Positions 1 to 62,193 of a DNA stretch of 64,000 nt are shown piece after piece. The notes under the pieces were generated by a model, which did not search any database, was not told where the DNA came from, and saw nothing but the letters and a program-made list of their open reading frames with translations. The stretch comes from Candidatus Omnitrophota bacterium. Its GTDB lineage: Bacteria; Omnitrophota; Gorgyraeia; Zapsychrales; Zapsychraceae. The position numbers and the translations under genes were made by a program. The stretch is from NCBI GenBank assembly GCA_018062515.1, contig JAGOSC010000002.1:20807-84806 (forward strand), given 5' to 3'. How positions within the stretch are numbered: the first letter of the stretch is position 1; the number at the start of each line of letters is the position of its first letter.

Positions 1-571
1 CTATTATGACTCCACCCGTGTAAACTTAGGATTATTTCAGCAAGATGTAAATGTGATTTGGGATTTGGCCCCGCATGATTTTTCTATCCTCGATTACTTA
101 TTGATGAAAACTCCCACCAAGATCAGCGCCGTCGGAATTGATCATTTTGATCGCGGTATTGAAAATATTGCTTATGTCACCATGTATTTTCAAGAGAATC
201 TGATCGCCCATTTTAATTTTAATTGGTTGTCTCCCGTCAAAATGAGAAATACATTAATCGGCGGAAGTAAACGAATGCTCGTATGGGACGACTTACAGAC
301 CGACGAGAAACTTAAAATTTATGATAAAGGTGTTGATATTGATAGCAAAGAAGGAATTTATCGTTCACTGATCGATTACCGTTTGGGCGACATGCGCTCT
401 CCCCGGGTCGATCCAAGTGAAGCCCTCAAGCAGGAATTAATTTATTTAGTCAAATGCATTGAAAATAATCAAACGCCGATTAATGATGGGCATGCCGGAT
501 TAAGGGTTGTCCGCATGCTGGAAGCCACGGACGAATCCTTAAAACACGGCGGAAAGGTCATCAAAATATAA
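1..571 (+). CDS. Gfo/Idh/MocA-family oxidoreductase, C-terminal part (5' end lies upstream of the window)
   Basis: The frame stays open to base 2 with no start codon. The C-terminal alpha/beta-domain sequence resembles sugar dehydrogenases (memory-based), and the context is a sugar-nucleotide cluster. Confidence 0.5.
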   Translation, partial: YYDSTRVNLGLFQQDVNVIWDLAPHDFSILDYLLMKTPTKISAVGIDHFDRGIENIAYVTMYFQENLIAHFNFNWLSPVKMRNTLIGGSKRMLVWDDLQTDEKLKIYDKGVDIDSKEGIYRSLIDYRLGDMRSPRVDPSEALKQELIYLVKCIENNQTPINDGHAGLRVVRMLEATDESLKHGGKVIKI

Positions 572-14252: not shown

Positions 14253-15396
14253 AACAGCAAAAGATCCGCAAACATATCACGGCATGAAATATCGGCTTTT
14301 TTTTGCCGGTTTTTTTCTGGATACCATTTTGTTTTTGTTTTTGCTCTATAGTGGAATGACCTTTAGCATTAAACATTCCGCCCATTCCATAGTCAATCAA
14401 GTCTCCGTCGGGAATGCATTTTACGTTGCCTGCTTAAGTATCTTTTTGTATATCATTCACTTTCCGTTAGGTTATTTTAATGGATTTGTTTGGGAACATA
14501 GACATGGATTGTCCAACCAAACATTTGGACAATGGATAAAGGATGACCTTAAGAAATTTGTTTTGGGACTGGTTCTCTCGACGATCTTAGTGTGCGCGAT
14601 TTATTGGTTCTTAGGGCGGATGGGCGGCGCGTGGTGGTTGATGGCCGGAACTTTTTGGCTATTTTTAAGTGTCGTGTTAGCTAAATTAATGCCGAATGTC
14701 ATTGTGCCATTATTTTACAAATATAAGAATATCGACGATGAATTGTTGAAACATAGCATTCACGAAATGTTTAATCATTGCCGTACAACTCTTAAAGATA
14801 TTTACGCTATTGATTTTTCAAGTAAGACAAAAAAGGCCAATGCGTTTATCTGCGGGCTGGGAAAATCCCGTCGAGTTGTCCTGAGTGACACATTGCTCTC
14901 GGAATTTGATAAGGAAGAAATTGAAGCCGTGGTGGCGCACGAATTAGGACATTATTGTCATCGCGATATTGTTAAAATGCTGGCCGTGAACGCGGTTTTG
15001 ATTTTTTCAGGATTATATATCATCGATAAGGTTTTAAAGGGCGCGGTCAATTACTTTGGTTTTGATGGAATGAATGATATAGCCTCCTTGCCGCTTTTTA
15101 TTCTGGTTTTTTCTTTATTAGGCATTATTGTTACTCCGTTAACCAATTGGTATAGTTGTCGCATGGAGAAATCAGCCGACGAGTTTAGCTTAAAACTAAC
15201 AGATAAGCCCGGCGCTTTTATCAGTATGATGGAAAAATTAGGACAGATGAATTTGTCAGAATTTCAGCCGAATAAATTTATCGAAATATTTTTTTATGAT
15301 CACCCGCCCCTTCAACAGCGGATTAATTTTGCCAGAAATTTTAAAAAGGATAATGAACATGACCGAAGCAAAATCAGAAAAAAGAAAATATCTTAG
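14245..15396 (+). CDS. M48-family (Ste24/HtpX-like) membrane zinc metalloprotease
   Basis: Several N-terminal transmembrane segments and the HELGHY zinc-binding motif (VAHELGHYCHRD). Confidence 0.75.
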   Translation: MHKTAKDPQTYHGMKYRLFFAGFFLDTILFLFLLYSGMTFSIKHSAHSIVNQVSVGNAFYVACLSIFLYIIHFPLGYFNGFVWEHRHGLSNQTFGQWIKDDLKKFVLGLVLSTILVCAIYWFLGRMGGAWWLMAGTFWLFLSVVLAKLMPNVIVPLFYKYKNIDDELLKHSIHEMFNHCRTTLKDIYAIDFSSKTKKANAFICGLGKSRRVVLSDTLLSEFDKEEIEAVVAHELGHYCHRDIVKMLAVNAVLIFSGLYIIDKVLKGAVNYFGFDGMNDIASLPLFILVFSLLGIIVTPLTNWYSCRMEKSADEFSLKLTDKPGAFISMMEKLGQMNLSEFQPNKFIEIFFYDHPPLQQRINFARNFKKDNEHDRSKIRKKKIS

Positions 15397-15829
15397 AACC
15401 GCTAAAAAAGTCCCGATGGATTTCTCGCCGGTGGATCATCAGGAAATACTTCTTCCCGGTGTGGGTTGGCAGAAGGGACAAACCGTTAATGTCAGCCAAG
15501 GCGGTGTCTGTGTCGAAACGGAAACCTTAAATGAATCCGTGATTAGATATTTGAATCAACAGCAAATTTTGCTGGCTTTAAAGTTTCATATTCCGTTTTA
15601 TAAAAAAACGGTGCATGCGATAGGGAACGTCGCGTGGTATGAAAAAGAAGAAACCTCCATAGGCATACGTTATACATTAGGAATCAAGTATCGTTCGATA
15701 AAACCCGTCGACGTTCAGGTTCTTCTTCGGCAAACAGCGATTTTTAAATTTTTTCTTTATATTGTTTTTATTTTGACCACCCTTTTCGTCGGAAGTTTGA
15801 TGTATTATTTCTTAATCAGCGCACGTTAG
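15353..15829 (+). CDS. PilZ-domain protein with C-terminal transmembrane segment
   Basis: RKYLR (RxxxR) and NVSQGG (D/NxSxGG) c-di-GMP-binding motifs. An internal ATG was chosen to limit overlap with the upstream gene. Confidence 0.55.
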   Translation: MNMTEAKSEKRKYLRTAKKVPMDFSPVDHQEILLPGVGWQKGQTVNVSQGGVCVETETLNESVIRYLNQQQILLALKFHIPFYKKTVHAIGNVAWYEKEETSIGIRYTLGIKYRSIKPVDVQVLLRQTAIFKFFLYIVFILTTLFVGSLMYYFLISAR

Positions 15830-18776: not shown

Positions 18777-19698
18777 ACAGGAGCGCGATATGAGTTTAAT
18801 TACAATCGGAACGGTGGCTTTAGATAATCTAGTAACGCCGTCCGGAAAAAAAGAAGATTTGCTCGGCGGGTCGGCCAGTCATTTTTCGGTCTGCGCCCAA
18901 TTATTTACCCCTGTGCATCTTGTCAGTGTGATCGGAAAAGATTTCCCTAAACAGCATTTAAATTTTCTAAAGAAGAAGGGGATTAATTTAGATTCGGTAA
19001 CTATAGCCGACGGAAAAACGTTTTCCTGGACGGGGGAATATAAAAAAGAAGATTTGAATACGGCGATCACTCACACGACGGTGTTGGGTGTTCTTGAACA
19101 ATACACCCCACAAATAACCGCCGCACAAAAGAAAATCCCGAATGTTTTTCTCGCGAATTTCGATCCGGATATTCAAATGAATTTTCTCAAGCTCATGGAT
19201 AATCCTAAGTTCATAGGTATGGACACAATGAATCTATGGATTGATATCAAAAATAAATCTGTTAAAAATTTAATGAAAAAAGTTCATTTGATGATTGTGA
19301 ATGATCGCGAAGCAAAATTATTGACGGATGAAACAAATTTACATAAAGCCGCGAAAGCGATCCGTCGTATGGGACCCAAAATGGTTGTCATCAAAAAGGG
19401 GGAAAATGGGGTTATGTTTTACAGTGATCTTCATCATTTTGCTTTTTCCGCATACCCGGTTGAAACCGTTGTCGATCCGACGGGAGCAGGTGATTCTTTC
19501 GCCGGAGGAATCATGGGTTATTTATCTAAGTCAGGACGTGTCACGCAAAAAGTCTTACATAAGGCTATTTTATACGCGACGACATTATCCTCTTACAATG
19601 TCGAAGGTTTTGGCATGGCTAAGACTGCCAATTTAACATTAGACGGTATTAATACGCGCCTAAACGAATTACGTAAACACATTATGCCGGTGGGTTAA
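18766..19698 (+). CDS. PfkB-family carbohydrate/nucleoside kinase
   Basis: DPTGAGDSFAGG anion-hole motif and N-terminal GG dipeptide region. Confidence 0.75.
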   Translation: MMNKQERDMSLITIGTVALDNLVTPSGKKEDLLGGSASHFSVCAQLFTPVHLVSVIGKDFPKQHLNFLKKKGINLDSVTIADGKTFSWTGEYKKEDLNTAITHTTVLGVLEQYTPQITAAQKKIPNVFLANFDPDIQMNFLKLMDNPKFIGMDTMNLWIDIKNKSVKNLMKKVHLMIVNDREAKLLTDETNLHKAAKAIRRMGPKMVVIKKGENGVMFYSDLHHFAFSAYPVETVVDPTGAGDSFAGGIMGYLSKSGRVTQKVLHKAILYATTLSSYNVEGFGMAKTANLTLDGINTRLNELRKHIMPVG

Positions 19699-19699
19699 T

Positions 19700-19978
19700 A
19701 TGAAAGAATTTAATTGGATATATATTTCAGGAATGATCGGGGCCATCATCCTGCCATTTTTTAGCGTGCCTCTGATTATTAAAGTGGTTCAGCGCAAATC
19801 ATCCGAAGATATCAGTATGCTTTGGGCGATCGGAGTTTTTACCTGTTTTGTCATCATGCTTCCGTCGGCGTTGACGTCGTCGGATTTAATTTATAAAACC
19901 TACAGTCTTATCAATATCGTTCTCTTTTCCGGCGTCGTCTACGTCACATTAAAATACAAAGGTGGTTTAAAAAAATGA
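19700..19978 (+). CDS. small two-helix membrane protein
   Basis: 92 aa with two hydrophobic helices, tightly packed between the kinase gene and era. Confidence 0.4.
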   Translation: MKEFNWIYISGMIGAIILPFFSVPLIIKVVQRKSSEDISMLWAIGVFTCFVIMLPSALTSSDLIYKTYSLINIVLFSGVVYVTLKYKGGLKK

Positions 19979-20907
19979 AAGAAAGCAAACTAAAGCCCAA
20001 ATTCGGAATGGTTTCCATCGTTGGCCGGCCCAACGTCGGAAAATCTACTTTACTCAATAAAATTGTCGGTGAGAAGATAGCCATTGTTTCCAAAGTTCCG
20101 CAGACTACCCGTAATCAGATCCGAGGAATGTACAATGATCATCGCGGTCAAATTGTGTTTATTGATACGCCCGGTTATCACCCCGGAGGGGACAATCTGG
20201 GCCGTTATATGAATAGCGCGGCAGCGTCGACCATGGATCATGTGGATTGTTTGATTTATTTGGTGGATCCAAGCCGAAGAATCGGAAAAGAAGAAGAAAA
20301 CATGGCGGAGAAGATTAAGAACGTCAAGATTCCGGTTATTCTTGGACTTAATAAAGTGGATATCAGAAAAACCCCGCTCGATGAATATATTCGTTTTTAT
20401 GAAAAGGTCGTCGGAAAACCCATTACTGAAATGACAAATATTTCTCTAGTTGCTTTATCGGGTGAAAAAGGCATTAATATCGACAAATTGCTCGATGTTA
20501 TTTTTGAATATTTGCCTGAAGGTATTCCGATGTACGATAACGATGTCATAACGGATTTGCCGCAAAAAATGGCAATTGCAGATATTATCAGAGAGAAATT
20601 CTTAATGACATTGAAAGAGGAATTGCCTCATTCCATCGGTGTTTTTATTGAACAAATGCTGCCTTCCAAAGGTAATACCATTCATATTAAAGCTTTGATT
20701 TACGTCGAGCGTCCGACACAAAAAGAAATAGTGATTGGCAAAAATGGCGAGATTTTGAAAAATGTAGGCACGCTGGCGCGGGCAGATTTAGAACAATTAC
20801 TAGAGAAGAAAGTATTTTTGGAAACGTACGTGAAGGTGAGTAAACGTTGGCGGGATGACATTTCAATTTTGCAGGAATTAGGATACGACTCTTTAGGCTT
20901 GTCATGA
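19975..20907 (+). CDS. era: GTPase Era
   Basis: G1 motif GRPNVGKST, DTPG, NKVD, and a C-terminal KH domain. Confidence 0.85.
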   Translation: MKESKLKPKFGMVSIVGRPNVGKSTLLNKIVGEKIAIVSKVPQTTRNQIRGMYNDHRGQIVFIDTPGYHPGGDNLGRYMNSAAASTMDHVDCLIYLVDPSRRIGKEEENMAEKIKNVKIPVILGLNKVDIRKTPLDEYIRFYEKVVGKPITEMTNISLVALSGEKGINIDKLLDVIFEYLPEGIPMYDNDVITDLPQKMAIADIIREKFLMTLKEELPHSIGVFIEQMLPSKGNTIHIKALIYVERPTQKEIVIGKNGEILKNVGTLARADLEQLLEKKVFLETYVKVSKRWRDDISILQELGYDSLGLS

Positions 20908-27374: not shown

Positions 27375-28748
27375 ATGACTTTCCAAGAAGCCCGCATCTA
27401 CCTCAATTCATTCATCGATTCCGAACAATCCCTTGATCAATTAACAAATAAAGCCTTTAAGCTTGAACGCGTGTTTCAAGTTTTAAATGCATTAGATAAT
27501 CCGCATAAAAAATTGAAAGCCATTCACGTCGCCGGATCTAAAGGGAAAGGCTCAACGTCGACGATGATAGCTCATATTCTAAAAGAAGCCGGCTATAAAG
27601 TCGGTTTATATACGTCTCCACATATTCAATCCTATAATGAAAGAATTCGTATTTTAAGCCATGAGGCGCCGACCTCGGCGAACATGCTGTTTTCGGATTG
27701 TATATCTGACCAGCAATTAGCCGAGAGTTTGACGTCTATTTGTCCCATCATTGAAAAATTTAGAAATGACCCCACGCTGGGAGCGTTAACATTCTATGAA
27801 GTATTTACGGTCTTGGCTTTTTATTTTTTTGATCAGGAGCAGGTTGATTTTGCAGTTATTGAAACGGGCTTAGGCGGACGATTGGACGCGACTAATGTAA
27901 TCGATTCTATGATTGCTGTCATCACGCCGATTAGCCTCGAGCATACGCATATTCTCGGTGACACATTGGACAAAATTGCTTTTGAAAAAGCAGCCATTAT
28001 TAAAAATTTTCAAGATGCAGTTATCGCGCCTCAACCTCCAGCGGCAAAGATTGTGATTTTTGAACATTGCGAACAATTTAAAATTAAACCGGTCGATGTT
28101 AGTCAGGTGGTTGATTTTCAAGAAATTAAACAAGATTTGAACAGTCAAACAATACAATTAAGGACGACGGAAAAGGTTTATCAAAATTTAGAAATTGCGT
28201 TATTGGGGCAGCATCAAATCTGGAATGCGGCTACGGCTATTATCGTCGCCGAACGGATAGGGAAAAGAGGATTTGCGGTCAATATGGATGCCATTTATCG
28301 AGGATTGAAAACGGTATTTTGGCCAGTGCGTTTTGAGGTAATCAGAAAAAATCCTACCATTATTTTAGATGGTGCTCACAATGAAGATTCGATGTTACAT
28401 CTAGTAAATACGGTATCGTCTTTATTTGGTGATCAAAAAGTTCATCTAATATTCGGTGTATCGAATGACAAAAAGATAAAAGAGATGTGCACCGCGATTA
28501 AAAGTGTTTCTCGACGGGTGTATATCACAAAGGCGGATCATAAAAGGGCGTATCATTTTAGTGACGATGAATTAAGTAATATTTTTTTTGACGTAGATAT
28601 TGTTAAAACAAACACCGTCGCTGAGGCATTGCGGGCTGCTCAAGACGATTGCTCGCCGGAAGATATTATTTTGATTACGGGATCAATCTTTTTGGCCAGC
28701 GAGGCTAGAAGTTTACTCTTAAGTAGGACCGACTATGTATCAATATGA
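27375..28748 (+). CDS. folC: folylpolyglutamate synthase / dihydrofolate synthase (Mur-ligase family)
   Basis: P-loop HVAGSKGKGST and Mur-ligase middle and C-domain arrangement. Confidence 0.8.
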   Translation: MTFQEARIYLNSFIDSEQSLDQLTNKAFKLERVFQVLNALDNPHKKLKAIHVAGSKGKGSTSTMIAHILKEAGYKVGLYTSPHIQSYNERIRILSHEAPTSANMLFSDCISDQQLAESLTSICPIIEKFRNDPTLGALTFYEVFTVLAFYFFDQEQVDFAVIETGLGGRLDATNVIDSMIAVITPISLEHTHILGDTLDKIAFEKAAIIKNFQDAVIAPQPPAAKIVIFEHCEQFKIKPVDVSQVVDFQEIKQDLNSQTIQLRTTEKVYQNLEIALLGQHQIWNAATAIIVAERIGKRGFAVNMDAIYRGLKTVFWPVRFEVIRKNPTIILDGAHNEDSMLHLVNTVSSLFGDQKVHLIFGVSNDKKIKEMCTAIKSVSRRVYITKADHKRAYHFSDDELSNIFFDVDIVKTNTVAEALRAAQDDCSPEDIILITGSIFLASEARSLLLSRTDYVSI

Positions 28749-30129
28749 AGGATTAAAAGACACGATCGCGGCCATTTCTACTCCAGCAGGGCAAGGAGGC
28801 ATTGGTATCGTTCGTTTAAGCGGACCAGATGCATTGAATATAGCCCAAAAAATGTTTCGTTCCCGACGATCTAATAAACTAACCTCATTTAAAAGTCACA
28901 CGATCCATTACGGTTGGATTGTTTCTCCGGACGAAAAAATTATTGACGAAGTGCTTGTCAGCGTTATGCGAGCTCCAAAAAGTTATACAACGGAGGATGT
29001 CGTCGAGATTAGTTGTCACGGCGGCTTAATATCATTACAGACAATTTTAAATTTGACGCATGATTATGGGGCGAGACTTGCTCAACCCGGAGAATTTACC
29101 AAAAGGGCTTTTTTAAACGGACGCATCGATTTAACACAAGCTGAAGCTGTTCTCGATATTATCCAATCGAAAACGAACGCCTTTCTTAAAGTCAGTGCCA
29201 ATCAATTAAGAGGCGAGTTATCATCGCAGTTGGCGCATATCCGGGAAAAGTTAATGAATATCTATATCGAAATCGAGGCCATTGTTAATTTTCCCGAGGA
29301 TGAAATTGATGCTAAAGGAAGAGACCGCTTGAGTAAAGATATTGAATCGACGAAAGAACTGGTTAATCAATTATTATCGTCGGCGGATCAAGGACGATTG
29401 CTCAAAGAAGGAATTAAAATTGTTTTGTGTGGGAAGCCTAATGTCGGAAAATCGTCGCTGTTAAATATCTTTTTGAAAGTCGAACGGGCTATTGTATCAA
29501 ATATCGCCGGGACAACGCGTGATACTATTGAAGAAACAGCGTCGATTAATGGTTATCCTTTTTTGTTCGTCGATACCGCTGGTATATTGACGCCGAGAGA
29601 TATTATTGAAGAAGAAGCCATTCGACGCAGCCATCTTCATATCGAAGGCGCTGATTTGGTCTTATTATTATTGGACAGTTCTTTGCCGCTTGAAGCAGCT
29701 GATTACGATTTGATTGAGCGTTTTAAAGTACAAAATATGATTATTGTCCTCAATAAATCAGATTTACCGCAACGCATCTCAAAGGAAGAATTAAATAAAG
29801 TTGCGTCGGGAAAATCACTTCAGTCTATATCAGCCTTAAAATCAAAAGACATTGATTCCCTGAAAAGATTGATTATTGAAAATGTCTTAAAAGGAAAAGA
29901 AGCTTCATCTCAAAATCTTCTCGTCAGTAATATGCGGCATATTACGGCGTTGAAAGATGGCTGCCAAGCCTTGGATAGAGCCCAGGAACATTTGAAGAAC
30001 GGATTATCTTTGGAGTTTGTTTCTGAAGAAATCAAGATTGCTGTCAATAATCTCGATGGAATTACCGGAAGAAATATTGATTATGATCTCTTGGATAATA
30101 TTTTTTCTCAGTTTTGTATCGGGAAATAG
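28735..30129 (+). CDS. mnmE: tRNA modification GTPase MnmE
   Basis: G-domain GKPNVGKSSLLN, DTAG, NKSD, and the C-terminal CIGK motif. Confidence 0.85.
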   Translation: MYQYEGLKDTIAAISTPAGQGGIGIVRLSGPDALNIAQKMFRSRRSNKLTSFKSHTIHYGWIVSPDEKIIDEVLVSVMRAPKSYTTEDVVEISCHGGLISLQTILNLTHDYGARLAQPGEFTKRAFLNGRIDLTQAEAVLDIIQSKTNAFLKVSANQLRGELSSQLAHIREKLMNIYIEIEAIVNFPEDEIDAKGRDRLSKDIESTKELVNQLLSSADQGRLLKEGIKIVLCGKPNVGKSSLLNIFLKVERAIVSNIAGTTRDTIEETASINGYPFLFVDTAGILTPRDIIEEEAIRRSHLHIEGADLVLLLLDSSLPLEAADYDLIERFKVQNMIIVLNKSDLPQRISKEELNKVASGKSLQSISALKSKDIDSLKRLIIENVLKGKEASSQNLLVSNMRHITALKDGCQALDRAQEHLKNGLSLEFVSEEIKIAVNNLDGITGRNIDYDLLDNIFSQFCIGK

Positions 30130-30893: not shown

Positions 30894-31135
30894 TGTTTAT
30901 TGAAAGGGTTAGAGTTATGAATAGCAAAATTATTCGAGTATAACATTTCTGATATTTATGTTCAATTCCAATATTTCCGTGATAAAGTAATTTTGTAAAT
31001 CAATGGGGCATATGTTATGCTTTATTACTAGAACGGAATTTATGCAGAGGGTAAACCATCTGAGAAGTTGGGGCACAAAGCTAAAGGGTCTTGGTTGTTT
31101 CGAGATAGCCAGCTGCACGCATAATAATTACGGTT

Positions 31136-31173
31136 AAGCCTATTCTTCTCATAAAAAGAATAGGTTTTTTTTT
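31136..31173 (+). terminator. intrinsic-terminator-like hairpin (9-12-bp stem, 8-nt loop, T9) only 25 nt upstream of the next + strand gene
   Basis: cctattctt [ctcataaa] aagaatagg followed by ttttttttt (31139-31173). No + strand CDS lies upstream of it. Confidence 0.5.
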
Positions 31174-31198: not shown

Positions 31199-32332
31199 AT
31201 GAATCAGGCGAGAATCGCAATTTTTGTAATCTCCATAATGGCGATACCCGTTTTTGCTTTGGCAGAAACATTGACCATGACAACGTATTATCCTTCCCCT
31301 TTTGGTGTCTATCAATCATTAAGGTTGGCTCCCAACGCTTCAGCGCCAGCTTGCAGCGGTTCGACGACCGGAACGATGTATGTAGATACGTCAAATATAT
31401 TACAATATTGCGATGGAACATCCTATTCAACTATCGGTGAATGGATTTTAAGTGGAACGGATCTTTATCCTCGATCTTATGAGGATGCGAATGTCGGGAT
31501 AGGAACCAACGAACCAGATGCGAAATTGCACATATTTAGTGATACTGACCCAACCGCTATCCGAATACAAACTGGTCTTTTGCCTTCCTGGGAATTACAA
31601 GCTAATGACACAAATCCTCAGAAAGGATTTTCTATTTGGAGTGAATCTGTAGGAACGGTTTTGTCCATTTTACCCGCATCTGGAGGACTGGTTGGTATTC
31701 AAACAACCACACCTTCATCGGCATTGGAAGTGAATGGAGATATTGAATTAGAAGACAATTTGATTTTTAACGGAGTAACTCCAATGATTTCCACAACACA
31801 AGCTGATTTATCTGTAGTCCCGAGCAGTGGCTTTAGCCTTCGGGCCGACCTTAGTGGAAGAGGTCGGTTTTACGTTTATGATGGGGATGTGGGGGATCAT
31901 TTATTAACAGTTGATCAAACGACCAGACGCGTCGGAATCTTGAATGAGGCGCCGACATCGGAATTAGATGTTAATGGGACTGTTACGGCCATCAGCTATT
32001 TGTATGCTTCGGATGCTCGTTTTAAAGAAGATTTTAAACCAGTTTTAGGATTAGACGGCATTATGCAGTTGGAAGGTTTAAGTTATACCTGGAAAGAAAA
32101 TGGCAAACATGATATTGGAATCACCGCCCAGGATGTGGAAAAAGTTTATCCGGAATTGGTGTATACGGATGAAAAGTCCGGTAAAAAATATGTGGAATAC
32201 GGTAATTTAATTGCGCCGATGATCGAGGCCATTAAGGATCAGCAAAAATTAATTGAGTATCAAAACGCAGAAATTGATGCATTAAGGAAAGAATTCCATC
32301 AAATGAAGCATGATATGGATTTTTTGCGTTAA
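31199..32332 (+). CDS. exported tail-fibre-like protein with C-terminal intramolecular-chaperone (peptidase S74) domain
   Basis: Signal peptide; NVGIGTNEPDAKLHI-type tail-fibre repeat; C-terminal SDARFKEDFKPV...LSYTWKE...GITAQDVEKVYPELV pattern of the self-cleaving chaperone of endosialidase/tail-spike. Confidence 0.6.
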   Translation: MNQARIAIFVISIMAIPVFALAETLTMTTYYPSPFGVYQSLRLAPNASAPACSGSTTGTMYVDTSNILQYCDGTSYSTIGEWILSGTDLYPRSYEDANVGIGTNEPDAKLHIFSDTDPTAIRIQTGLLPSWELQANDTNPQKGFSIWSESVGTVLSILPASGGLVGIQTTTPSSALEVNGDIELEDNLIFNGVTPMISTTQADLSVVPSSGFSLRADLSGRGRFYVYDGDVGDHLLTVDQTTRRVGILNEAPTSELDVNGTVTAISYLYASDARFKEDFKPVLGLDGIMQLEGLSYTWKENGKHDIGITAQDVEKVYPELVYTDEKSGKKYVEYGNLIAPMIEAIKDQQKLIEYQNAEIDALRKEFHQMKHDMDFLR

Positions 32333-32349
32333 ATTTTAGGAGAAAAAAG

Positions 32350-33609
32350 ATGATAAAATATCTTTGGGAAAAAACAATCTTCTTCGTCACAATTATATTG
32401 TTTATGTTTGTTTCAACATCATATGCTGGTCAAGAAACGTGTGAGCGAGGAGAGTCTGGGTGTATTTGTTCATATACGAGAGATGGAAGTTATGTTTGTT
32501 ATAAGACAAAGATAGGAGATTCATGTAATCCTCGCGGGACTTTTGGAAGCGATGGTCAGGACGGCGAAATTGGAATCGGAGCTGATACGGGAAATATTGG
32601 GTCTTCTGAAGGATGTTATTGCGATGACGGTCCAACCGGAAAACAAAATTGCCGTACTTACGGAACGGAAACATCGGGATTTTTACTTGCTCAAGAGGCG
32701 GGACAAGGAAAAGTTCCGGCTTTACGAATAAATTTGACCTATACTTCTGACACGGAACCAAATCGCGGTGAGTTAGAATGTTGGGACATTACTAACGAGA
32801 ATCGTGAAGAATATTTTATCCCGACGGCTTCGCAGGAAGAATGGAATACTTTTAAAGCTAAGGTTTTAGAAAATACTGTGTCTGGTGTAACCATGACTAA
32901 GTGTCCGAGTTGCGGAGATCGGATATGTTCTAATCCCGCCACTTATTGGGGATATATTGAAGGTTGCGGTTCTGATGACAGCATGAATCCATCAGTTGAA
33001 ACCGGCGATCCGATGTGCAATACCGATTGTCATGCTTGTCCTATTGTTTGTGGGGACGGCGTTTGTGCCGCCGGAGCGGAAGATTGTACAGGCGGGATTG
33101 GAGATAATCCATGTGCTGATTGCGGAGCGTGTACCTGCGGAGACGCAGATTTCGATTGTACCGGGCAATGCGGTAAGTGTGCCGATTGTTCTCCCTGCTG
33201 TGAGGACGGAGTCTGTGATGCCACTGAAGATAATACAACTTGCGCGGCGGATTGCCCGGCAACAGGTGTATGCACGGGAGCAGTGCCGATTAATTCAATA
33301 TTATGTCCGGGAGATGATACAGGTTTAACAGCAGATGCGCCTAATTCATCAGTCACGGCTTGTACCCCTGGAACCAAATGTGAATATTTATGTAACGCCA
33401 ATACACAATTTGTTGCAGATGAATGCCGATATTGCGCGGTTGCAACAGGAAAAGGTTGCGATACTGGCGGGGGGGATGATTGTAGTCTTTTAGCTGATTG
33501 TTCCCTTAGTGATGGGTGTCCAGTTTTAGGCTATTGTCGTGTAGATTACACCGGTGACTGCAGCGTTTCTCCGTGCGGAGATTTATATGAATGTCAAATT
33601 TGTCTTTAG
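32350..33609 (+). CDS. exported cysteine-rich repeat protein (~60 Cys; CxDGxC / CGxC modules)
   Basis: Signal peptide (cleavage ~SYA/GQ), then Cys, Gly, Asp and Thr make up most residues. Recurrent CGDGVC, CEDGVC, CADCGAC units. Confidence 0.55.
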   Translation: MIKYLWEKTIFFVTIILFMFVSTSYAGQETCERGESGCICSYTRDGSYVCYKTKIGDSCNPRGTFGSDGQDGEIGIGADTGNIGSSEGCYCDDGPTGKQNCRTYGTETSGFLLAQEAGQGKVPALRINLTYTSDTEPNRGELECWDITNENREEYFIPTASQEEWNTFKAKVLENTVSGVTMTKCPSCGDRICSNPATYWGYIEGCGSDDSMNPSVETGDPMCNTDCHACPIVCGDGVCAAGAEDCTGGIGDNPCADCGACTCGDADFDCTGQCGKCADCSPCCEDGVCDATEDNTTCAADCPATGVCTGAVPINSILCPGDDTGLTADAPNSSVTACTPGTKCEYLCNANTQFVADECRYCAVATGKGCDTGGGDDCSLLADCSLSDGCPVLGYCRVDYTGDCSVSPCGDLYECQICL

Positions 33610-33784
33610 TTGCGTCAACTCAGCGGAAGTCATCCATACCATTTCCGCCGGGCTATGGTGATCCTTTAACTGGCCATTTCCTTTATATGATTGTCTGACA
33701 AATGTCATTAGTATTTGTAAAAATATAAATTTTTTCTAAACCATATATTCAAAAATTTTTACCAACATTCCTCAATAACTCTGC

Positions 33785-33813
33785 TTGAACAATAAAAAGT
33801 AATGATATATACT
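33785..33813 (+). promoter_or_regulatory. candidate sigma70 promoter TTGAAC-17-TATACT
   Basis: 33785-33790 TTGAAC, 17-nt spacer, 33808-33813 TATACT, 25 nt upstream of the 33839 start. Confidence 0.4.
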
Positions 33814-33838
33814 ATCACTACTTATAAGGCTCTTATTT

Positions 33839-35077
33839 ATGCGGAGATTCTCCCAAAAAATAAATTTTAAAAAGGGGCAAAGCATTTTCGAATATGCCCT
33901 TTTGATTTTTTTAGCCCTCGCCGGAGTTTATATTCTGACTCCTTTTGTTGTCCGTTCATGGAACGGAAATATTAAAGGTTGGCAAGATTCAATGACCGAC
34001 TCCTACCAAGAACCCATTGGGGCAGCGCCTCCAAGAGCTACTCATATAGATTGTCAATGTTCTTATCAATGTAATAATCCACCTCCGGGCGGAGACGGCC
34101 TTTGTTGTGGGCATGGCACCTGTGAAGAATATCAAAATGCCATGGTATGGACCTGTAATCATGCTGGTTGTCAGGATCCTCCGGGCGGAGAAGTTAATAG
34201 ATACGATTGTAGTGACGAAAACCCAGGATGTTGCACAACACCGGTTAAATTGAAGGTGCCGGATTACTGTGGTGAAACTCCGTGTTTGCCTGAGGAAGTA
34301 CCGGCCGGATATTTTTGTGGAGGGGATCCGCACACGCCACCTAATCCATGGGAAAGATACGTCTGTGAACCTGATCCGAGCTGCGTATATCAATGTGATC
34401 CACAATCCCCCGCGCCATGTGTTTTTCCTTTGCCTTGTGCTACACCGAAGGTAGGATATCATAATGATATTTGCCGAAATGACAATTTAAATTTACCGGG
34501 TCCGGACGATACGTTAATGACCTTCGTTGAAAGAGGCAAATGTAGCAGTCCGTCAGAGTATCCAAAATGTGAATGGGAATGTGAGCTACCGTATCACCCT
34601 GATAGAATGCATACTGAATGTAAATGTCCACCAGGATCTTGGGATCCGCCAGACCCTCCTCCTCCCGCTCCTCCTGTAGTTGAATGTGTCATGGATTGCG
34701 GTGCAGGCGCTTTAGATGGCTCTTGCGATCCAAGGACGCCCGGTCTGGGCGAACCAACCCGCTGTGAAGATTTAACATCGTTTCAAGCTTGTCAAGCCTA
34801 TAGAGGCGTATGTTCTTGGGACTCTTCAGCAAGTCCTGCAACATGTGAAACAGTCCTGACTTGTTCGGATTTGCGAACAAATGTGACATTAACACAGCCT
34901 GACCCGGCAATTTACGCTCAATTTACCCGTTGTGATTCTATTCCATGGTGTGGGTGGACCGGTCCAGGTGGCGGATACTGTTGTCCAGCGGTTTTATCAG
35001 TCGATTGTCCTACTGGTGAGGCGCAAAAAGGATCATGCCCGGCAGGTGAAGTTGTGAGATGTTGTGAAGAGCTCTAG
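33839..35077 (+). CDS. Flp/TadE-type (class III leader) protein with large Cys/Pro-rich extracellular domain
   Basis: N-terminus KKGQSIFEYALLIFLALAGV fits the G/XXXXEY prepilin-peptidase motif followed by a hydrophobic helix. The remaining ~370 aa has ~50 Cys and PP(P) runs. Confidence 0.55.
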   Translation: MRRFSQKINFKKGQSIFEYALLIFLALAGVYILTPFVVRSWNGNIKGWQDSMTDSYQEPIGAAPPRATHIDCQCSYQCNNPPPGGDGLCCGHGTCEEYQNAMVWTCNHAGCQDPPGGEVNRYDCSDENPGCCTTPVKLKVPDYCGETPCLPEEVPAGYFCGGDPHTPPNPWERYVCEPDPSCVYQCDPQSPAPCVFPLPCATPKVGYHNDICRNDNLNLPGPDDTLMTFVERGKCSSPSEYPKCEWECELPYHPDRMHTECKCPPGSWDPPDPPPPAPPVVECVMDCGAGALDGSCDPRTPGLGEPTRCEDLTSFQACQAYRGVCSWDSSASPATCETVLTCSDLRTNVTLTQPDPAIYAQFTRCDSIPWCGWTGPGGGYCCPAVLSVDCPTGEAQKGSCPAGEVVRCCEEL

Positions 35078-35118
35078 TTCATTAATCTGTTATATTAAAT
35101 TTTATGGGGAGGCTAATT

Positions 35119-35535
35119 ATGGCCGTTAGGAATTTTAAAATCCTATTTCTTCTTTTTCTCGTAACAAATATTCTTATTGTGGGTTTAAATTTTTTGAACA
35201 TAAACTCTAAAGAAGAAGTTGACGCCCAATGTATAAAAGTTTTACAAGGATATCCACCAATTGAGAATATAGATGCCTGGGATAGTAGTGGGGCTTGCGA
35301 TTCACGAGCTGGATGGGACTCCTCTAAAAAATATTCTTTATGCGTTTTATCCAAAGTGGAACATCAGGATGATAGTGGTGATGATTGTAGTGAAGACACT
35401 GGAAATTTTAGTAGATGTGAACTTTCGAGAATTGGGCCGCTTAGTTCAGATGGTAGAGATTTTTGGCATATACAGGCCTCACGACATCCTGCGTGCAATA
35501 GTTGTATACGATGCCAGGCATTATGTATAAACTAA
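35119..35535 (+). CDS. small exported Cys-protein, paralog 1 of 3
   Basis: GGGGAGG Shine-Dalgarno sequence 6 nt before the ATG at 35119. Hydrophobic N-segment, then EVDAQC, HQDD, and a C-terminal CIRCQALC. Confidence 0.5.
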   Translation: MAVRNFKILFLLFLVTNILIVGLNFLNINSKEEVDAQCIKVLQGYPPIENIDAWDSSGACDSRAGWDSSKKYSLCVLSKVEHQDDSGDDCSEDTGNFSRCELSRIGPLSSDGRDFWHIQASRHPACNSCIRCQALCIN

Positions 35536-35559
35536 ATATTTTCTATTAGGAGATTTGCT

Positions 35560-35934
35560 ATGACCGTCAACAACATTAAAACACCAATGATTCTTTTTTT
35601 TCTATTTAATATTCTTGTATTAGCCTTTAATTTCTTTATTAGTCAATCCAGCGATAAAGTTAACGCTCAACCGGTATGTGAGCAAGTTTTAACCCATTTA
35701 TCTGAGGGATTGAGTACATGTTTCCAGAAAAACGCGAGTTGTGGCCTTCAAACAGATATAACAACTGGGAGTCCGGCCTTTTGTTTTTTGACAAGAGTGT
35801 ATCAACAGGATTCTGCTAGGGATGATCTGTCGTCTTGTTTGCTGCAAAAGCGGACTCAGGATAATGAATGGCAATTGGACTCAATAGCAAACAATAATAA
35901 TAGGGTTGCATGCGAGGCTCAGTGCATAAAATAA
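35560..35934 (+). CDS. small exported Cys-protein, paralog 2 of 3
   Basis: AGGAG Shine-Dalgarno sequence. Same architecture: hydrophobic N-segment, KVNAQPVC, QQDSARDD, C-terminal CEAQC. Confidence 0.5.
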   Translation: MTVNNIKTPMILFFLFNILVLAFNFFISQSSDKVNAQPVCEQVLTHLSEGLSTCFQKNASCGLQTDITTGSPAFCFLTRVYQQDSARDDLSSCLLQKRTQDNEWQLDSIANNNNRVACEAQCIK

Positions 35935-35960
35935 AAATTTGAAATATGAAGGAAGTTAAT

Positions 35961-36344
35961 ATGTCTATCAAAAATAGAAAAAAATTATACATATTCTTTT
36001 TGGTATTTAATATTTTTATAGTTAGCCTGAATTTTTTCTTAATAAGATCAAAAGATGAGGTTAACGCGCAATGTATGTCGCCAATTCTGGGAATTCCAAC
36101 ACAAACTCTAGAGGCCACGCAAGGTAATACTTGTGCTTCAACTGGGGATCAGCATTCAACACTGCCTGCGACGTTGTGTTATCTGACTTTAGTAGAACAT
36201 CAGGATGATAAAACTCGGACGGACAATTTGGCTGAATGTCATGTTTATCAGAACGGAGACCATTGGACTTTACATGCAGGGGGTCCATCATCGGGAAATG
36301 GTACAGAGACTTGTATAAGATGTAAAGCGGAATGTATGAGGTAG
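35961..36344 (+). CDS. small exported Cys-protein, paralog 3 of 3
   Basis: GAAGGAAG before the ATG at 35961. Hydrophobic N-segment, EVNAQC, VEHQDD, C-terminal CIRCKAEC. Confidence 0.5.
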   Translation: MSIKNRKKLYIFFLVFNIFIVSLNFFLIRSKDEVNAQCMSPILGIPTQTLEATQGNTCASTGDQHSTLPATLCYLTLVEHQDDKTRTDNLAECHVYQNGDHWTLHAGGPSSGNGTETCIRCKAECMR

Positions 36345-36486
36345 AATCATCGAAATGTTGATTAAATATTTGATACAATTTTTAAAGGGAGATCATTGAT
36401 TTTTTAAAAATAAACTAAAATTTTCATCATAACAAAAAAATACTGATGATTTTTGTCAATATTTTCAATATATTTTCATTTCGCTA

Positions 36487-36515
36487 TTGAAATTTATTAA
36501 ATTGTGTTTTATATT
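36487..36515 (+). promoter_or_regulatory. candidate promoter TTGAAA-17-TATATT in a 300-nt AT-rich spacer
   Basis: 36487-36492 TTGAAA, 17-nt spacer, 36510-36515 TATATT, ~130 nt upstream of the first PilZ gene. Confidence 0.3.
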
Positions 36516-36646
36516 TGTCTTGTAAATTAATATTTCCACTTAGTCACTCCCCAAAACTTAAGATTACAAATTTTAGAAAATGATTGATAATTGCGTTAAC
36601 CTTGTTAAACTGAACACAAGGTAACCAACTTATACAGATTTTTACT

Positions 36647-36973
36647 ATGAATAGAGAATTAAACAAACGAAAAAATAAGAGACTGAATTGCGAAGTCCCT
36701 GTAGAAAGTAAAGAGGGGGCTATTTTTGATGCGAGCAGTGTCGTCGATATCAGTCAAGGCGGTTTAGGATTTGTTTCTGCCCGCCGTATTCCTGTCAATA
36801 AACGAATTCCCATTGAAATTGATTTAAAAGAAGATGATGATTCTGTTCTGGTGATCGGCCGCGTTTTATATTCCAAATTAATTTCAGGTTCGTCAAATTA
36901 CCGTATCGGTGTCACATTTGAAAATGTGATGCGCGGTTCTAAAGTACGTCTCCAGCAATATTTTCATAAATAA
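36647..36973 (+). CDS. single-domain PilZ protein
   Basis: RKNKR (RxxxR) and DISQGG (DxSxGG) motifs; 108 aa. Confidence 0.6.
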   Translation: MNRELNKRKNKRLNCEVPVESKEGAIFDASSVVDISQGGLGFVSARRIPVNKRIPIEIDLKEDDDSVLVIGRVLYSKLISGSSNYRIGVTFENVMRGSKVRLQQYFHK

Positions 36974-36980
36974 TATATCT

Positions 36981-37334
36981 ATGTTTGAAGAAATCCGAAA
37001 AGATGACCGGCGTTTATTCGACCGATTTTCTGCCCGTTACCCGGCGAAATTCAAGGACGAGCGCGAATCATTCGGAGAAAATGTGCAGTTATGTGACGCA
37101 TCCGCCTTCGGAGCGCAATTTTCCTCAAGAGACAGACTGTTTTTAAATGACAAAATTGCTTTGGAAGTAGAATTGCCGGATGGTTTGGCGCCGATGGATT
37201 TACGCGGCGAAGTGGTTTGGATCAGAAAAAATGCAGCGAATTCTTGGAATATCGGTTTGAAATTTTATCAAGTTGAGCTTCTTCGAATGGCCCGCCTCTA
37301 TAAATTCCAATCCCAAACATTATCTTCATCATAA
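36981..37334 (+). CDS. single-domain PilZ protein
   Basis: RKDDRRLFDR and DASAFGAQF motifs; 117 aa, tandem with the previous gene. Confidence 0.55.
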   Translation: MFEEIRKDDRRLFDRFSARYPAKFKDERESFGENVQLCDASAFGAQFSSRDRLFLNDKIALEVELPDGLAPMDLRGEVVWIRKNAANSWNIGLKFYQVELLRMARLYKFQSQTLSSS

Positions 37335-50192: not shown

Positions 50193-52082
50193 ATGAGTCA
50201 ATTTTATGATGTGATTGTTATTGGTGGAGGCCATGCTGGCGTAGAAGCGTCCTTGGCGGCTGCTCGTATGGGCGCAAAGACGCTTATGGTGACCTTTTAT
50301 TGGGACACCATCGGCCAAATGAGCTGTAATCCCGCTATCGGTGGCGTTGGTAAAGGCCAGTTGGTTAAAGAAATCGACGCCTTAGGCGGTGAAATGGGCT
50401 TAGCCGCGGATCGCACCGGTATACAATTCCGCCAATTGAATTCTTCTAAAGGACAAGCCGTCCGTTCATCCCGCTGTCAATCTGACCGTAAATTATATAA
50501 ACTCTATATTCAAAGCGTTGTCAAAAATCAATCCAATCTGGATATTGTTGAAGATAAAGTTGCTGAATTAACTGTCGTTGGCGGAAAAATAAAAGGACTT
50601 AAGACCGAAGGCGGATTAAGTTTTGATTGTCACAGTGTTGTCGTCACGACGGGAACATTCTTGAAAGGTCGTATTCACATTGGAAAAGATATTACGCCGG
50701 CCGGACGTATTGGTGAGCCAAACTCGACGAGATTAGCCGATAATTTTACGGATCTTGGTTTGGAAGTTGTCTTTTTTAAGACGGGAACTCCGCCGAGACT
50801 CGACGGAAAAACCATCGATTTTTCAAAGTTAATTCCTCAGCACTCCGACGATAATCCGATTCCGTTTTCTTTCCGCACACCGTTTATTCCCAAAGATCAA
50901 AAATTGCTGCCTTGTCATATTACAAATACAAATGAACGGACGCATGAAATTATTAAGAAGAATATGCATTTGTCGCCGATGTATTCCGGACAAATCAAAG
51001 CCACAGGTGTGCGTTATTGTCCGTCGATTGAGGACAAATTAGATAAATTCTCGAGTAAAAACAGTCATCAAGTATTTCTTGAACCGGAAGGATTGGATAC
51101 CGACGAGTATTATCCCAACGGAATTTCCACCGGACTTCCGGCGGATGTTCAGGAACAATTTGTGCATTCCATTGCCGGTTTAGAAAAAGCTGTTTTCACA
51201 AAACCCGGTTATTCGATTGAACACGGTGTTGTTCTTCCGACGGGGCTTAAGCCCAGTTTAGAGACAAAAAAAATTAACGGTTTATTTTTGGCCGGCCAAA
51301 TCAATGGGACGACAGGATATGAAGAAGCCGGCGCTCAAGGTATTATGGCGGGAATTAATGCCGTGTTATATAGCCGAAGCGAATCGCCGTTTATTCTCCG
51401 ACGAGATGAGGCTTATATTGGCGTTTTAATTGATGATTTAACGACCAAAGGAACTGAAGAACCTTACCGCATGTTTACGTCGCGTGTGGAATACCGGTTG
51501 ATCGTCCGGGAAGATAATGCGGACACTCGATTATCTAAATATGGATATCAATTCGGTATTTTTAATGAAGATTTTTATCAATTGGTTCAGAAAAAATATG
51601 AGACCATTGAACGCGAAATTCAGCACCTTCGCGCGACGCGCGTTCATCCTAATAAAGAACTCAATGTTCATTTGGCCAAATATAACAGTAGTCCTTTGTT
51701 ATATCCAGCGACCTTAAGTGATCTTTTAAAAAGACCGGAATTAAATTATGCGGCGATAGCACCCTACGACGGAGATCTGAAACATTGCGAAAGAGGCGTG
51801 ATTGAACAAGTCGAATATGAAATTAAGTATGAAGGCTTTATTCAGCGTCAGCTTAAAGATGTTGATAAGTTCAAGCATATCGAAAACATCAAAATACCGG
51901 TTGGAATGATTTATGATGATATACAAGGCCTTTCCATTGAAATCCGTCAAAAATTAAAACGCTTCTCGCCTGTGAGTTTGGGCCAAGCTAATCGTATCTC
52001 CGGAGTTACACCTTCCGCCATATCCATTCTTATGGTTTATCTGAAAAAGTATCGTGAGAATAACGCCGCCTCGTCGATCTAA
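50193..52082 (+). CDS. mnmG: tRNA uridine-5-carboxymethylaminomethyl modification enzyme MnmG (GidA)
   Basis: FAD motif YDVIVIGGGHAGVEA and GidA-specific segments; 629 aa. Confidence 0.85.
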   Translation: MSQFYDVIVIGGGHAGVEASLAAARMGAKTLMVTFYWDTIGQMSCNPAIGGVGKGQLVKEIDALGGEMGLAADRTGIQFRQLNSSKGQAVRSSRCQSDRKLYKLYIQSVVKNQSNLDIVEDKVAELTVVGGKIKGLKTEGGLSFDCHSVVVTTGTFLKGRIHIGKDITPAGRIGEPNSTRLADNFTDLGLEVVFFKTGTPPRLDGKTIDFSKLIPQHSDDNPIPFSFRTPFIPKDQKLLPCHITNTNERTHEIIKKNMHLSPMYSGQIKATGVRYCPSIEDKLDKFSSKNSHQVFLEPEGLDTDEYYPNGISTGLPADVQEQFVHSIAGLEKAVFTKPGYSIEHGVVLPTGLKPSLETKKINGLFLAGQINGTTGYEEAGAQGIMAGINAVLYSRSESPFILRRDEAYIGVLIDDLTTKGTEEPYRMFTSRVEYRLIVREDNADTRLSKYGYQFGIFNEDFYQLVQKKYETIEREIQHLRATRVHPNKELNVHLAKYNSSPLLYPATLSDLLKRPELNYAAIAPYDGDLKHCERGVIEQVEYEIKYEGFIQRQLKDVDKFKHIENIKIPVGMIYDDIQGLSIEIRQKLKRFSPVSLGQANRISGVTPSAISILMVYLKKYRENNAASSI

Positions 52083-57884: not shown

Positions 57885-57958
57885 CGGGGAGTAGCGCAGC
57901 TGGCTAGCGTGCAACGTTCGGGACGTTGAGGTCGCGGGTTCAAATCCCGCCTCCCCGA
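57885..57958 (+). tRNA. tRNA-Pro (anticodon CGG)
   Basis: Manual fold: acceptor CGGGGAG/CUCCCCG, D-stem GCGC/GCGU, anticodon stem CAACG/CGTTG with loop UUCGGGA (U33, anticodon CGG), T-arm GCGGG-TTCAAAT-CCCGC, discriminator A, no encoded CCA. Confidence 0.8.
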
Positions 57959-61848: not shown

Positions 61849-62193
61849 ATGTTTATTCTCACCAAAAATGAAACTATCGTTTTAGCGGTTTTTGCCGTCG
61901 TTATTTGTTTGGGCTCAATATTTCATATGCTCATTAAAAAAGCTCCAGTTCTTACTCATTTCACCAATCAATCAGGCACAGGTCTGGTCCATCATAAAAT
62001 CGATATTAATACCGCTGATAAAGTAGAGCTGGAAAGCGTTCCTTATATTGGTGACTATACAGCGTCGGCCATTTTGGAATATCGTCTGAAAAATGGCGCT
62101 TTTAAGAACCTCGAACAATTAAAAATGATCCGCGGAATTCGGGAAAATAATTTTAAACGGTTCCAGCCGTATTTAAAAGTAGGTGGACCATGA
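61849..62193 (+). CDS. comEA: ComEA-like helix-hairpin-helix DNA-binding protein
   Basis: N-terminal transmembrane segment; HhH repeats DINTADKVELESVPYIG...IRGIRENNFKRFQPYL. Confidence 0.7.
   Translation: MFILTKNETIVLAVFAVVICLGSIFHMLIKKAPVLTHFTNQSGTGLVHHKIDINTADKVELESVPYIGDYTASAILEYRLKNGAFKNLEQLKMIRGIRENNFKRFQPYLKVGGP

Follow-up and report, generated by a model that had tools for sequence, protein, structure and literature searches.

What is encoded, and under what control, in a run of genes for exported and mostly cysteine-rich proteins in the genome of a Candidatus Omnitrophota bacterium? The run lies in a 64,000-nucleotide (nt) stretch of contig JAGOSC010000002.1 (positions 20,807 to 84,806), referred to below as the window. 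An original prediction, made from the bare sequence, had listed eight consecutive + strand open reading frames (ORFs), six for exported proteins (g1 to g6) and two for PilZ receptors (g7 and g8), and the positions of all eight are confirmed. On balance, the locus is probably a chromosomal surface-protein cluster of one Omnitrophota clade, the leading genes of which stand under a class I cyclic di-GMP (c-di-GMP-I) riboswitch, and serves as a surface attachment kit at low c-di-GMP.

To our knowledge, no pure-culture isolate of the Omnitrophota exists, and little is known of how these bacteria sense their state or attach. Literature searches on Omnitrophota together with c-di-GMP, and on riboswitch, cysteine, S74 and tail fibre within two Omnitrophota papers, revealed no earlier description of the locus, the riboswitch or the protein families. 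Members of the phylum are widespread, mostly ultra-small and thought to be host-dependent, and both Tad and type IVa pili are common among them (PMC10066038).

The riboswitch ahead of g1 and its predicted switching logic

The aptamer of a c-di-GMP-I riboswitch lies at 31040-31121 (+) and matches RF01051 with 49.5 bits, compared to a gathering score of 35. It is followed, in 5' to 3' direction, by 15 nt, an intrinsic terminator (31136-31173, +), a purine-rich stretch and the start codon of g1. The terminator, detected by a terminator scan, consists of a 12-bp stem (31136-31167) and a 9-T run that ends at 31173. The terminator-like hairpin that had been proposed to precede the locus is therefore real, but its position 15 nt 3' of the aptamer match makes it the expression platform of the riboswitch and not a plain terminator.

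Orthologous copies of the riboswitch reach 59.5-64 bits with RF01051 or its clan member RF03167 in the related loci L001/2, L003, L005, L006, L009 and L014, and for each lineage with sequence available 5' of the g1 ortholog, Rfam places a riboswitch there. The c-di-GMP theme of the original prediction is thus borne out on other evidence. A covariance model built from these sites (R1) scores them at 95-106 bits and has no other match in 541 kb of collected loci; an exact DNA pattern of the aptamer, searched in metagenome contigs, gave zero matches. In the riboswitch alignment (A8, seven sequences from six lineages), pairing is kept in 99.1% of the cells that form the helices of aptamer and terminator, and eight pairs (five in the aptamer, three in the terminator) show compensatory changes. 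None of 500 shuffles matched this level of pairing and compensation, and slid controls were 38-49% paired. The aptamer helices alone are 97.6-100% paired, and every lineage retains the terminator, 3 of whose 11 pairs have changed in a compensatory manner.

The conserved positions of the aptamer core agree with the canonical family consensus. A8 columns 15, 42 and 81 are an invariant G, A and C in all seven sequences, and we take them to be the ligand-contacting G20, A47 and C92 in Vc2 numbering. For some copies the model of the c-di-GMP-I-GGC variant class scores best; this class was rejected because the canonical CAAAGC core is kept. The predicted ligand is c-di-GMP. The window copy deviates at two positions, 31117, where it has an A and all orthologs have a C, directly 3' of the conserved C that presumably corresponds to C92, and 31049, where it has a G instead of an A. 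These two changes may account for its lower Rfam score.

How could such an aptamer act on the terminator? The segment at 31058-31075 (+), comprising the loop and 3' strand of the first aptamer hairpin, is predicted to pair with 31137-31154, and the hairpin (CAUCUGAGAAGAUGGGGC) is complementary to the 5' arm of the terminator (GCCUAUUCUUCUCGGAU). The minimum-free-energy fold of the nascent RNA (RNAfold) contains this anti-terminator pairing and is more stable, by 2.7-10.3 kcal/mol, than a fold with the aptamer alone; these energies cover the window, L003/L009, L005 and L006, with the rows for L002 and L014 left out, and a separate fold shows the same pairing in L002. Across the alignment, 89% of the anti-terminator cells are paired, versus 43-57% in slid controls. 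The terminator shares no strand with the aptamer, and ligand binding therefore cannot block it. The combination of aptamer, conserved anti-terminator pairing and terminator suggests an OFF-switch architecture, in which high c-di-GMP would terminate transcription.

The leader RNA would start from a predicted promoter at 30993-31021 (+), recognised by consensus match only, with a -35 element TTGTAA (30993-30998), a 17-nt spacer and an extended -10 element TGtTATGCT (31013-31021); the promoter block TTGGCA/TTTGTA...TATGTTATGCTTTAT is kept in six lineages. This RNA would carry the aptamer with its terminator-pairing segment and then the intrinsic terminator. When c-di-GMP is absent, the first aptamer hairpin would pair with the 5' arm of the terminator and RNA polymerase would enter g1 and g2. 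When c-di-GMP is bound, the aptamer would be locked, the terminator would form and transcription would end. Between cvpA and the riboswitch promoter, the region 30894-30990 contains the blocks GAGTATAACATTT, GTTCAAT and ATAAAGTA, which are strongly conserved across the six lineages. A - strand TTGAAC-17-TATACT sequence among them is probably the cvpA promoter, and a shared regulatory site may also be included.

Control of adhesins or pili by c-di-GMP riboswitches is established in other bacteria. The element Cd1 of Clostridioides difficile, described by Sudarsan et al. in 2008, is reportedly a transcription-terminating c-di-GMP-I (GEMM-I) riboswitch upstream of a flagellar operon. The Omnitrophota riboswitch shares with Cd1-type elements the aptamer family, the succession of aptamer and intrinsic terminator, the predicted OFF logic and a surface structure as target. 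It differs in its host phylum and in the controlled genes, which encode an S74 fibre and an undescribed cysteine-rich repeat protein, and its switching is predicted from sequence. The gain is a known principle of riboswitches and surface genes that is carried to a new phylum, together with newly named protein families, while the mechanism itself is not new. The riboswitch is also an element that can be assayed in vitro.

Gene order across Omnitrophota and the reach of the switch

Is the cluster more than a chance arrangement? Six Omnitrophota lineages, represented by L001/L002, L003/L004/L009, L005, L006, L014 and the window, have one gene order in common, at a matching place in the chromosome. 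The shared order consists of folC, mnmE, cvpA on the - strand, the riboswitch, the g1 ortholog, a gene for a cysteine-rich repeat protein (g2 in the window, a giant elsewhere), one or two g3-like genes (two paralogs each in L005 and L006) and two to four genes for small cysteine-rich proteins. In the relatives, PMT_2/YfhO glycosyltransferase genes come 3' of the module. The riboswitch and g1-g6 form a conserved module of exported proteins, and their proximity is not accidental.

The riboswitch may not control the whole module. Intergenic gaps are 11-26 nt within g1-g2 and within g3-g6, and the spacer between g2 and g3 has 229 nt. This spacer holds a predicted internal promoter of g3 (33785-33813, +; TTGAAC-17-TATACT, sigma-70-like, found by promoter scan), which is present as TTGAAY-17-TATACT in four of the six lineages (window, L002, L003 and L014). 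RNA structure in the spacer is unremarkable (z=-0.27). The module probably comprises two transcription units, and, given the conserved promoter, g3-g6 may be only partly under riboswitch control. The claim that the locus is a single insulated module is accordingly doubtful.

These observations bear on a possible, although less probable, alternative, according to which the riboswitch controls g1-g2 only, g3-g6 form their own unit, the PilZ pair forms a third one, and adjacency reflects shared ancestry or a loose functional link. The conserved promoter and the long g2-g3 spacer speak for such separate regulation, as does the occurrence of distant g3-family genes without g1, g2 or riboswitch. A consensus terminator was looked for 3' of g2 and none was found, so that read-through is possible, and the order of g1, g2-like, g3-like and small-protein genes is held in all six lineages. 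In addition, a cysteine-rich C-terminal domain is common to g3 orthologs and to small proteins of other lineages, which suggests functional coupling. With the pattern CC..NC...CC...CC...C..G.C, this domain stands at the C-terminal end of the L002 (15584-16927) and L003 (15609-16955) orthologs of g3 and likewise of the small proteins of 151-154 amino acids (aa) in L005 (19643-20107) and L006 (19836-20291), a case of domain shuffling inside the module.

The exported proteins

The cysteine contents of g2 (11.5%), g3 (10.0%) and g4-g6 (5.3-6.3%) are far above the background of the 47 other window genes (1.06 +/- 0.75%, maximum 3.2%), with z = 5.6 to 13.8, in line with the unusual composition that had been claimed for them. 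Profile (hidden Markov model) searches identify g1 as Peptidase_S74 and g7 and g8 as PilZ and leave g2-g6 unmatched in Pfam and NCBIfam. Most proteins of the g1-g6 module represent undescribed families.

The first gene, g1 (31199-32332, +), encodes a secreted short S74 fibre protein of 377 aa. Peptidase_S74 (PF13884) covers residues 271-322 (nt 32009-32164) with E=3.2e-15 and 56.6 bits, compared to a cutoff of 22, over all 58 profile positions. SDxxxK is the catalytic motif of the S74 domain (PMC10769870), and in g1 it is intact as S271-D-A-R-F-K276 (nt 32009-32026), with S271 and K276 invariant in 13 sequences. The self-cleaving chaperone domain of the original prediction is therefore present. 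Twelve full-length orthologs share 52-65% identity with g1, and the distant P0014 shares 38%. The Sec signal is followed by a strictly conserved N-terminal motif of the mature protein, ETLTMTTYYPSPFGVY, found in 24 of 120 S74 matches from many lineages. Distant S74 genes with the YYPSP motif (L016-L018) lack a riboswitch, which makes the riboswitch link specific to this module. A monomer model from AlphaFold2 (AF2) is beta-rich, with a mean predicted local distance difference test (pLDDT) score of 49.5, and a sequence search of the PDB gave no relative of g1.

Cell-cell recognition has been proposed as the function of the mosaic adhesive trimeric (MAT) fibres of Bdellovibrio bacteriovorus, which form an S74 subgroup (PMC10769870). 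Like these, g1 is chromosomal and non-phage and combines a signal peptide with a terminal S74 chaperone/protease domain containing SDxxxK, and the owner of the MAT fibres, Bdellovibrio, depends on other cells (PMC10769870). By analogy with the MAT fibres (PMC10769870), g1 should trimerise and cleave itself at Ser271. After export, trimerisation would proceed via the C-terminal S74 chaperone domain, which would then be cut off, leaving a short surface fibre of ~250 aa. With ~250 aa in its mature form, g1 is much shorter than the MAT fibres, which extend up to ~550 Å. The MAT fibres have a conserved N-terminal domain of ~130 aa, and g1 carries an N-terminal motif of its own, TTYYPSPxGVY. Moreover, g1 is riboswitch-controlled and part of a conserved cluster.

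S74 domains are also typical of phage tail fibres and spikes (PMC10769870), which raises the question of a prophage or tailocin remnant, a tail-fibre gene with accessory genes left behind in the chromosome. This origin is very improbable and was rejected, as several lineages keep the cluster in place between housekeeping genes, the scanned window ORFs of at least 150 aa include no phage genes, and 2.9 million viral contigs contain no member of the g3 family. The GC content across the locus likewise shows no island-like break.

Two further observations concern S74 proteins and pili. In L016 (1-774 and 10500-10943), several prepilin-type N_methyl genes flank a distant YYPSP-motif S74 fibre gene, and pilin domains (N_methyl or Shufflon_N) form part of some S74 homologs of g1 as fusions. 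S74 fibres and type IV pili may thus be connected more widely.

The second gene, g2 (32350-33609, +), encodes a secreted cysteine-rich repeat protein of 419 aa. An earlier figure of one-seventh cysteine was overstated, since its 48 cysteines amount to ~1/9 of the protein and only the C-terminal 235 residues reach 16.6%. Its orthologs elsewhere are giants of 1,418-1,919 aa with 11-12% cysteine. Residues 88-418 of g2 align at 45-54% identity to the first ~420 aa of the giants, whose internal repeats they match as well, and the C-terminal motif GDLY.C...L is common to both. Because these features of the giants are retained, g2 gives the impression of a repeat protein that has contracted, rather than of a broken gene. 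One giant ortholog has 10 partial Sushi-repeat matches, and a PDB sequence search with a giant gave no relative. The protein would be a disulfide-rich repeat protein whose repeat number differs among lineages, as in surface adhesins. A test for similarity between g2 and g3 found none.

The third gene, g3 (33839-35077, +), encodes a Flp/Tad-type pilin-like protein of 412 aa, identical to the hypothetical protein KBD53_00705 of a Candidatus Omnitrophica metagenome-assembled genome. Its leader, KKG|QSIFEYALLIFLALAGV (G|QSIFEY, of the G/XXXXEY type), precedes a hydrophobic helix, and the following block PFVVRSWNGNIKGW is the window version of the near-invariant family motif MGPYVIRSWNANVKGW. The remainder is a cysteine- and proline-rich C-terminal domain of ~350 aa. 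The Flp-type leader and the polyproline run (PPDPPPP) that had been described are both present; the number of cysteines is 41 instead of the ~50 given before. Q14 and E18 are invariant in 16 family members, and G13 is invariant in seven close orthologs and replaced by A in some distant members. The structure models that had been suggested were run singly for g1 and g3. In the latter (overall pLDDT 56), the N-terminal helix alone is confident (residues 5-45, pLDDT up to 84).

The orthologs of g3 in the syntenic loci share 36-45% identity with it. Full-length g3 has no Pfam match at E<=0.1, and sequence searches found no PDB relative of the family. The family is rare: an alignment query retrieved 16 clusters from 5.8 billion proteins; a single-sequence query had found g3 alone, as the word index passed over orthologs of 36-45% identity, and a look-up of the exact g3 sequence gave no record. 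All six genome loci of the family belong to Omnitrophota. In a metagenome scan, 22 further and more distant members emerged, which have the N-terminal module in common and C-terminal parts that range from 64 to 688 aa, and the family includes members of 64-67 aa, the size of Flp pilins.

Where do these distant members reside? In L036, a g3-like gene is followed by genes for RcpC/CpaB (3e-25), a secretin (1e-40) and a TadZ-TadA-type ATPase with AAA_31 and T2SSE domains (1e-58). L040 has the same layout according to BLAST, and BLAST similarity (RcpC, secretin, TadZ-TadA) points to it in L038 as well. On its upstream side, the g3-like gene of L036 has gyrB, gyrA and metabolic genes and not, as ORF sizes had suggested, TadA/B/C; the Tad genes of this locus are downstream. 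The g3-like gene of L040 (9965-10462) has the same QSTLEY leader as two Flp-type pilins nearby. Both of these small pilins lie downstream of the Tad locus, one with 64 aa (19149-19343; Class_IIIsignal, 1e-7) and the other with 100 aa and no Pfam match (19792-20094). Around eight other g3-family loci, the secretin is the most recurrent neighbour, and Secretin, Secretin_N, MshEN and T2SSE are the top families. Filament machinery near distant members is also found in L020, L023, L028 and L029.

Because the distant family adjoins Tad and secretin genes and its leader is shared with Flp pilins, the N-terminal module of g3 is best read as a Tad/Flp-type pilin module. In this clade, the module would have moved away from the machinery and been given a cysteine- and proline-rich head. 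A prepilin peptidase with its gene elsewhere would then cleave the protein, which would enter a Tad-type filament as a large minor pilin or tip pilin with this domain on display. With Flp pilins (Flp_Fap, Class III signal), g3 shares the G/XXXXEY leader and the hydrophobic helix, and distant members of 64-67 aa are found in Tad loci; its 412 aa, the 350-aa cysteine- and proline-rich extension, the family block MGPYVIRSWNANVKGW and the lack of a Pfam match set it apart from them. This rare family suggests that Flp-type pilins can bear large cysteine-rich heads.

The Tip clusters kilLMN of the Myxococcus xanthus Kil (Tad) pilus encode disulfide-rich proteins away from the machinery and are proposed to mediate cell contact at the pilus end (PMC12075869). 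Like KilLMN and the minor pilins TadE/F/G, g3 is pilin-like, has a large variable disulfide-rich C-terminal domain and is encoded apart from the machinery. Unlike the Kil Tip trio, the window contains one pilin-like gene (some relatives have two), and g4-g6 carry Sec-type signals. Furthermore, the leader of g3 is of the Flp type (G|QSIxEY), and the protein is accompanied by a fibre, a giant repeat protein and small proteins with Sec signals. The original prediction had noted that the locus lacks Tad and phage structural genes and does not match a known pilus layout. The absence holds, as the scanned window ORFs, those of at least 150 aa, include neither Tad or type IV pilus genes nor phage genes. 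The conclusion on the layout has to be qualified in view of the distant g3-family members that adjoin Tad and secretin genes and of the Myxococcus tip clusters, which are likewise separate from the machinery (PMC12075869).

Three side observations concern the distant family. In a bulk scan of L020, L023, L026, L028, L029, L033, L012 and L015, MshEN occurs in four ORFs near distant g3-family genes. MshEN is the c-di-GMP-binding domain of MshE-type pilus ATPases, and in lineages that have it c-di-GMP may act on the filament motor instead of via a riboswitch. L012 (299-2630), from Candidatus Zapsychrus exili, contains several tandem g3-like N-terminal modules, one apparently split across ORFs, which could reflect paralog expansion or a frameshifted assembly. 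The contig of L013, which holds the solitary distant g3-family gene P0133, has a group II intron domain (RF01999, 97.7 bits) at 59-173 (-) beside a DUF1016 gene.

The last three genes, g4 (35104-35535, +), g5 (35560-35934, +) and g6 (35946-36344, +), encode small secreted cysteine proteins (alignment A1). Their description as three tandem paralogs is supported by pairwise identities of 29-40%. The family is a near-orphan, with nine matches in 1.84 billion representatives. With the small proteins of the relatives, in which the mature part has 45-55 aa and 3-6 cysteines, g4-g6 share the leader or signal region alone, the mature parts being unrelated; the leaders of both are ordinary Sec-like and end in V-x-A|Q. 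An exhaustive search detected three tandem copies of the g4-g6 C-terminal domain, C.L..V.FE.D....C.V.....W.L.A.....C...C, in P0144, a protein of 755 aa that matches no Pfam family. Hence, this domain is mobile and occurs beyond the small proteins. Thus, g4-g6 would be fast-evolving small secreted disulfide proteins, and such rapidly diversifying exported proteins are candidates for partner recognition.

Could these proteins instead be secreted effectors or antimicrobial cysteine-rich proteins, which diversify like toxins and use the fibre for delivery or targeting? The unrelated mature parts behind a shared leader, the near-orphan status of the family, and the short, cysteine-containing mature proteins of the relatives fit this reading, which is nonetheless unlikely. 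The cluster lacks immunity, transporter and modification genes, the leaders resemble ordinary Sec signals, and the large proteins (fibre, repeat protein and pilin-like protein) look like surface structures.

As a surface attachment kit, the cluster would furnish the cell at low c-di-GMP with the surface proteins by which it attaches to a host, prey or particle. A number of findings weigh against this reading. The Rfam score of the window aptamer is below those of its orthologs, the anti-terminator covariation is not significant, and the anti-terminator of the window is, with 2.7 kcal/mol, the weakest of the set; with this weak pairing and the lowest aptamer score, the switch of the window may be leaky or decaying. 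The conserved promoter 5' of g3 means that g3-g6 may not answer to the riboswitch. Neither the N-terminal 69 aa of g3 nor those of the L002 ortholog match Flp_Fap, TadE, Class_IIIsignal or any other Pfam family at E<=10, and a Tad gene or prepilin peptidase was found neither in the 64 kb of the window nor, at a distance of up to 10 kb, around the loci of close relatives. Moreover, g3 is the sole window protein with a pilin-type leader, while known tip complexes use two or three. Finally, the AF2 models of g1 and g3 are of low confidence and give the fibre and adhesin folds no structural support.

A more specific version of the attachment kit, tentative and rather doubtful, describes it as c-di-GMP-gated and directed at contact with host or prey, in Omnitrophota that are ultra-small and host-dependent. 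A free, searching cell with low c-di-GMP would display the short S74 fibre, a length-variable disulfide adhesin and a Tad tip pilin whose cysteine-rich head evolves fast, the hypervariable small proteins would help to decide which partner is recognised, and attachment would raise c-di-GMP and shut the genes off via the riboswitch. If true, this would provide a sequence-level handle on host recognition in Omnitrophota.

The PilZ pair and the flanking genes

Do the two genes that follow g6 belong to the module? The genes g7 and g8 (36647-37334, +) encode single-domain PilZ proteins, as had been stated, with Pfam matches to PF07238 (E=1.5e-11 and 3.3e-12) and intact RxxxR and [DN]xSxxG motifs (RKNKR/DISQGG in g7, RLFDR/DASAFG in g8). 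A comparison of the two with each other revealed no similarity. A PilZ-like sequence is absent from L001-L006 according to tblastn and from the gene lists of L001-L006 and L014, and the pair is therefore not a conserved member of the module. The 3' boundary of the module is the spacer between g6 and g7 (36345-36646), which has 302 nt, 22% GC and promoter-like sites. The original prediction had placed this AT-rich spacer of ~300 nt after the PilZ pair, where only 104 nt are found. A third PilZ ORF of 177 aa (15296-15829, +; E=2e-6, RKYLR/NVSQGG) overlaps the end of an M48 peptidase gene by ~100 nt, which shows PilZ genes to be common in this genome.

The model of the original prediction, one insulated module in which six exported proteins and two dedicated PilZ receptors form a c-di-GMP-dependent surface or effector system, has in its favour that the PilZ genes adjoin the module on the same strand with their binding motifs intact, and that the module itself is tied to c-di-GMP by the riboswitch. 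With no PilZ pair in any syntenic locus, an AT-rich spacer with promoter-like sites ahead of the pair and one more PilZ gene in another part of the window, this model is decidedly improbable. The genes g7 and g8 are neighbours of the surface-protein cluster and probably constitute a separate unit.

The upstream flank consists of the housekeeping genes folC and mnmE, and the downstream flank of a GH94/ABC sugar cluster, LacI and mnmG. In bacteria, mnmE and mnmG are frequently neighbours; in the window, mnmE (28735-30129) and mnmG (50193-52082) are ~20 kb apart, and the interval holds the module, the PilZ pair and a sugar cluster with GH94, ABC-transporter, GH2, TPR and LacI genes. Further downstream, a tRNA gene (57885-57958) and the gene for the competence channel ComEC (62190-63815) are both unrelated to the module.

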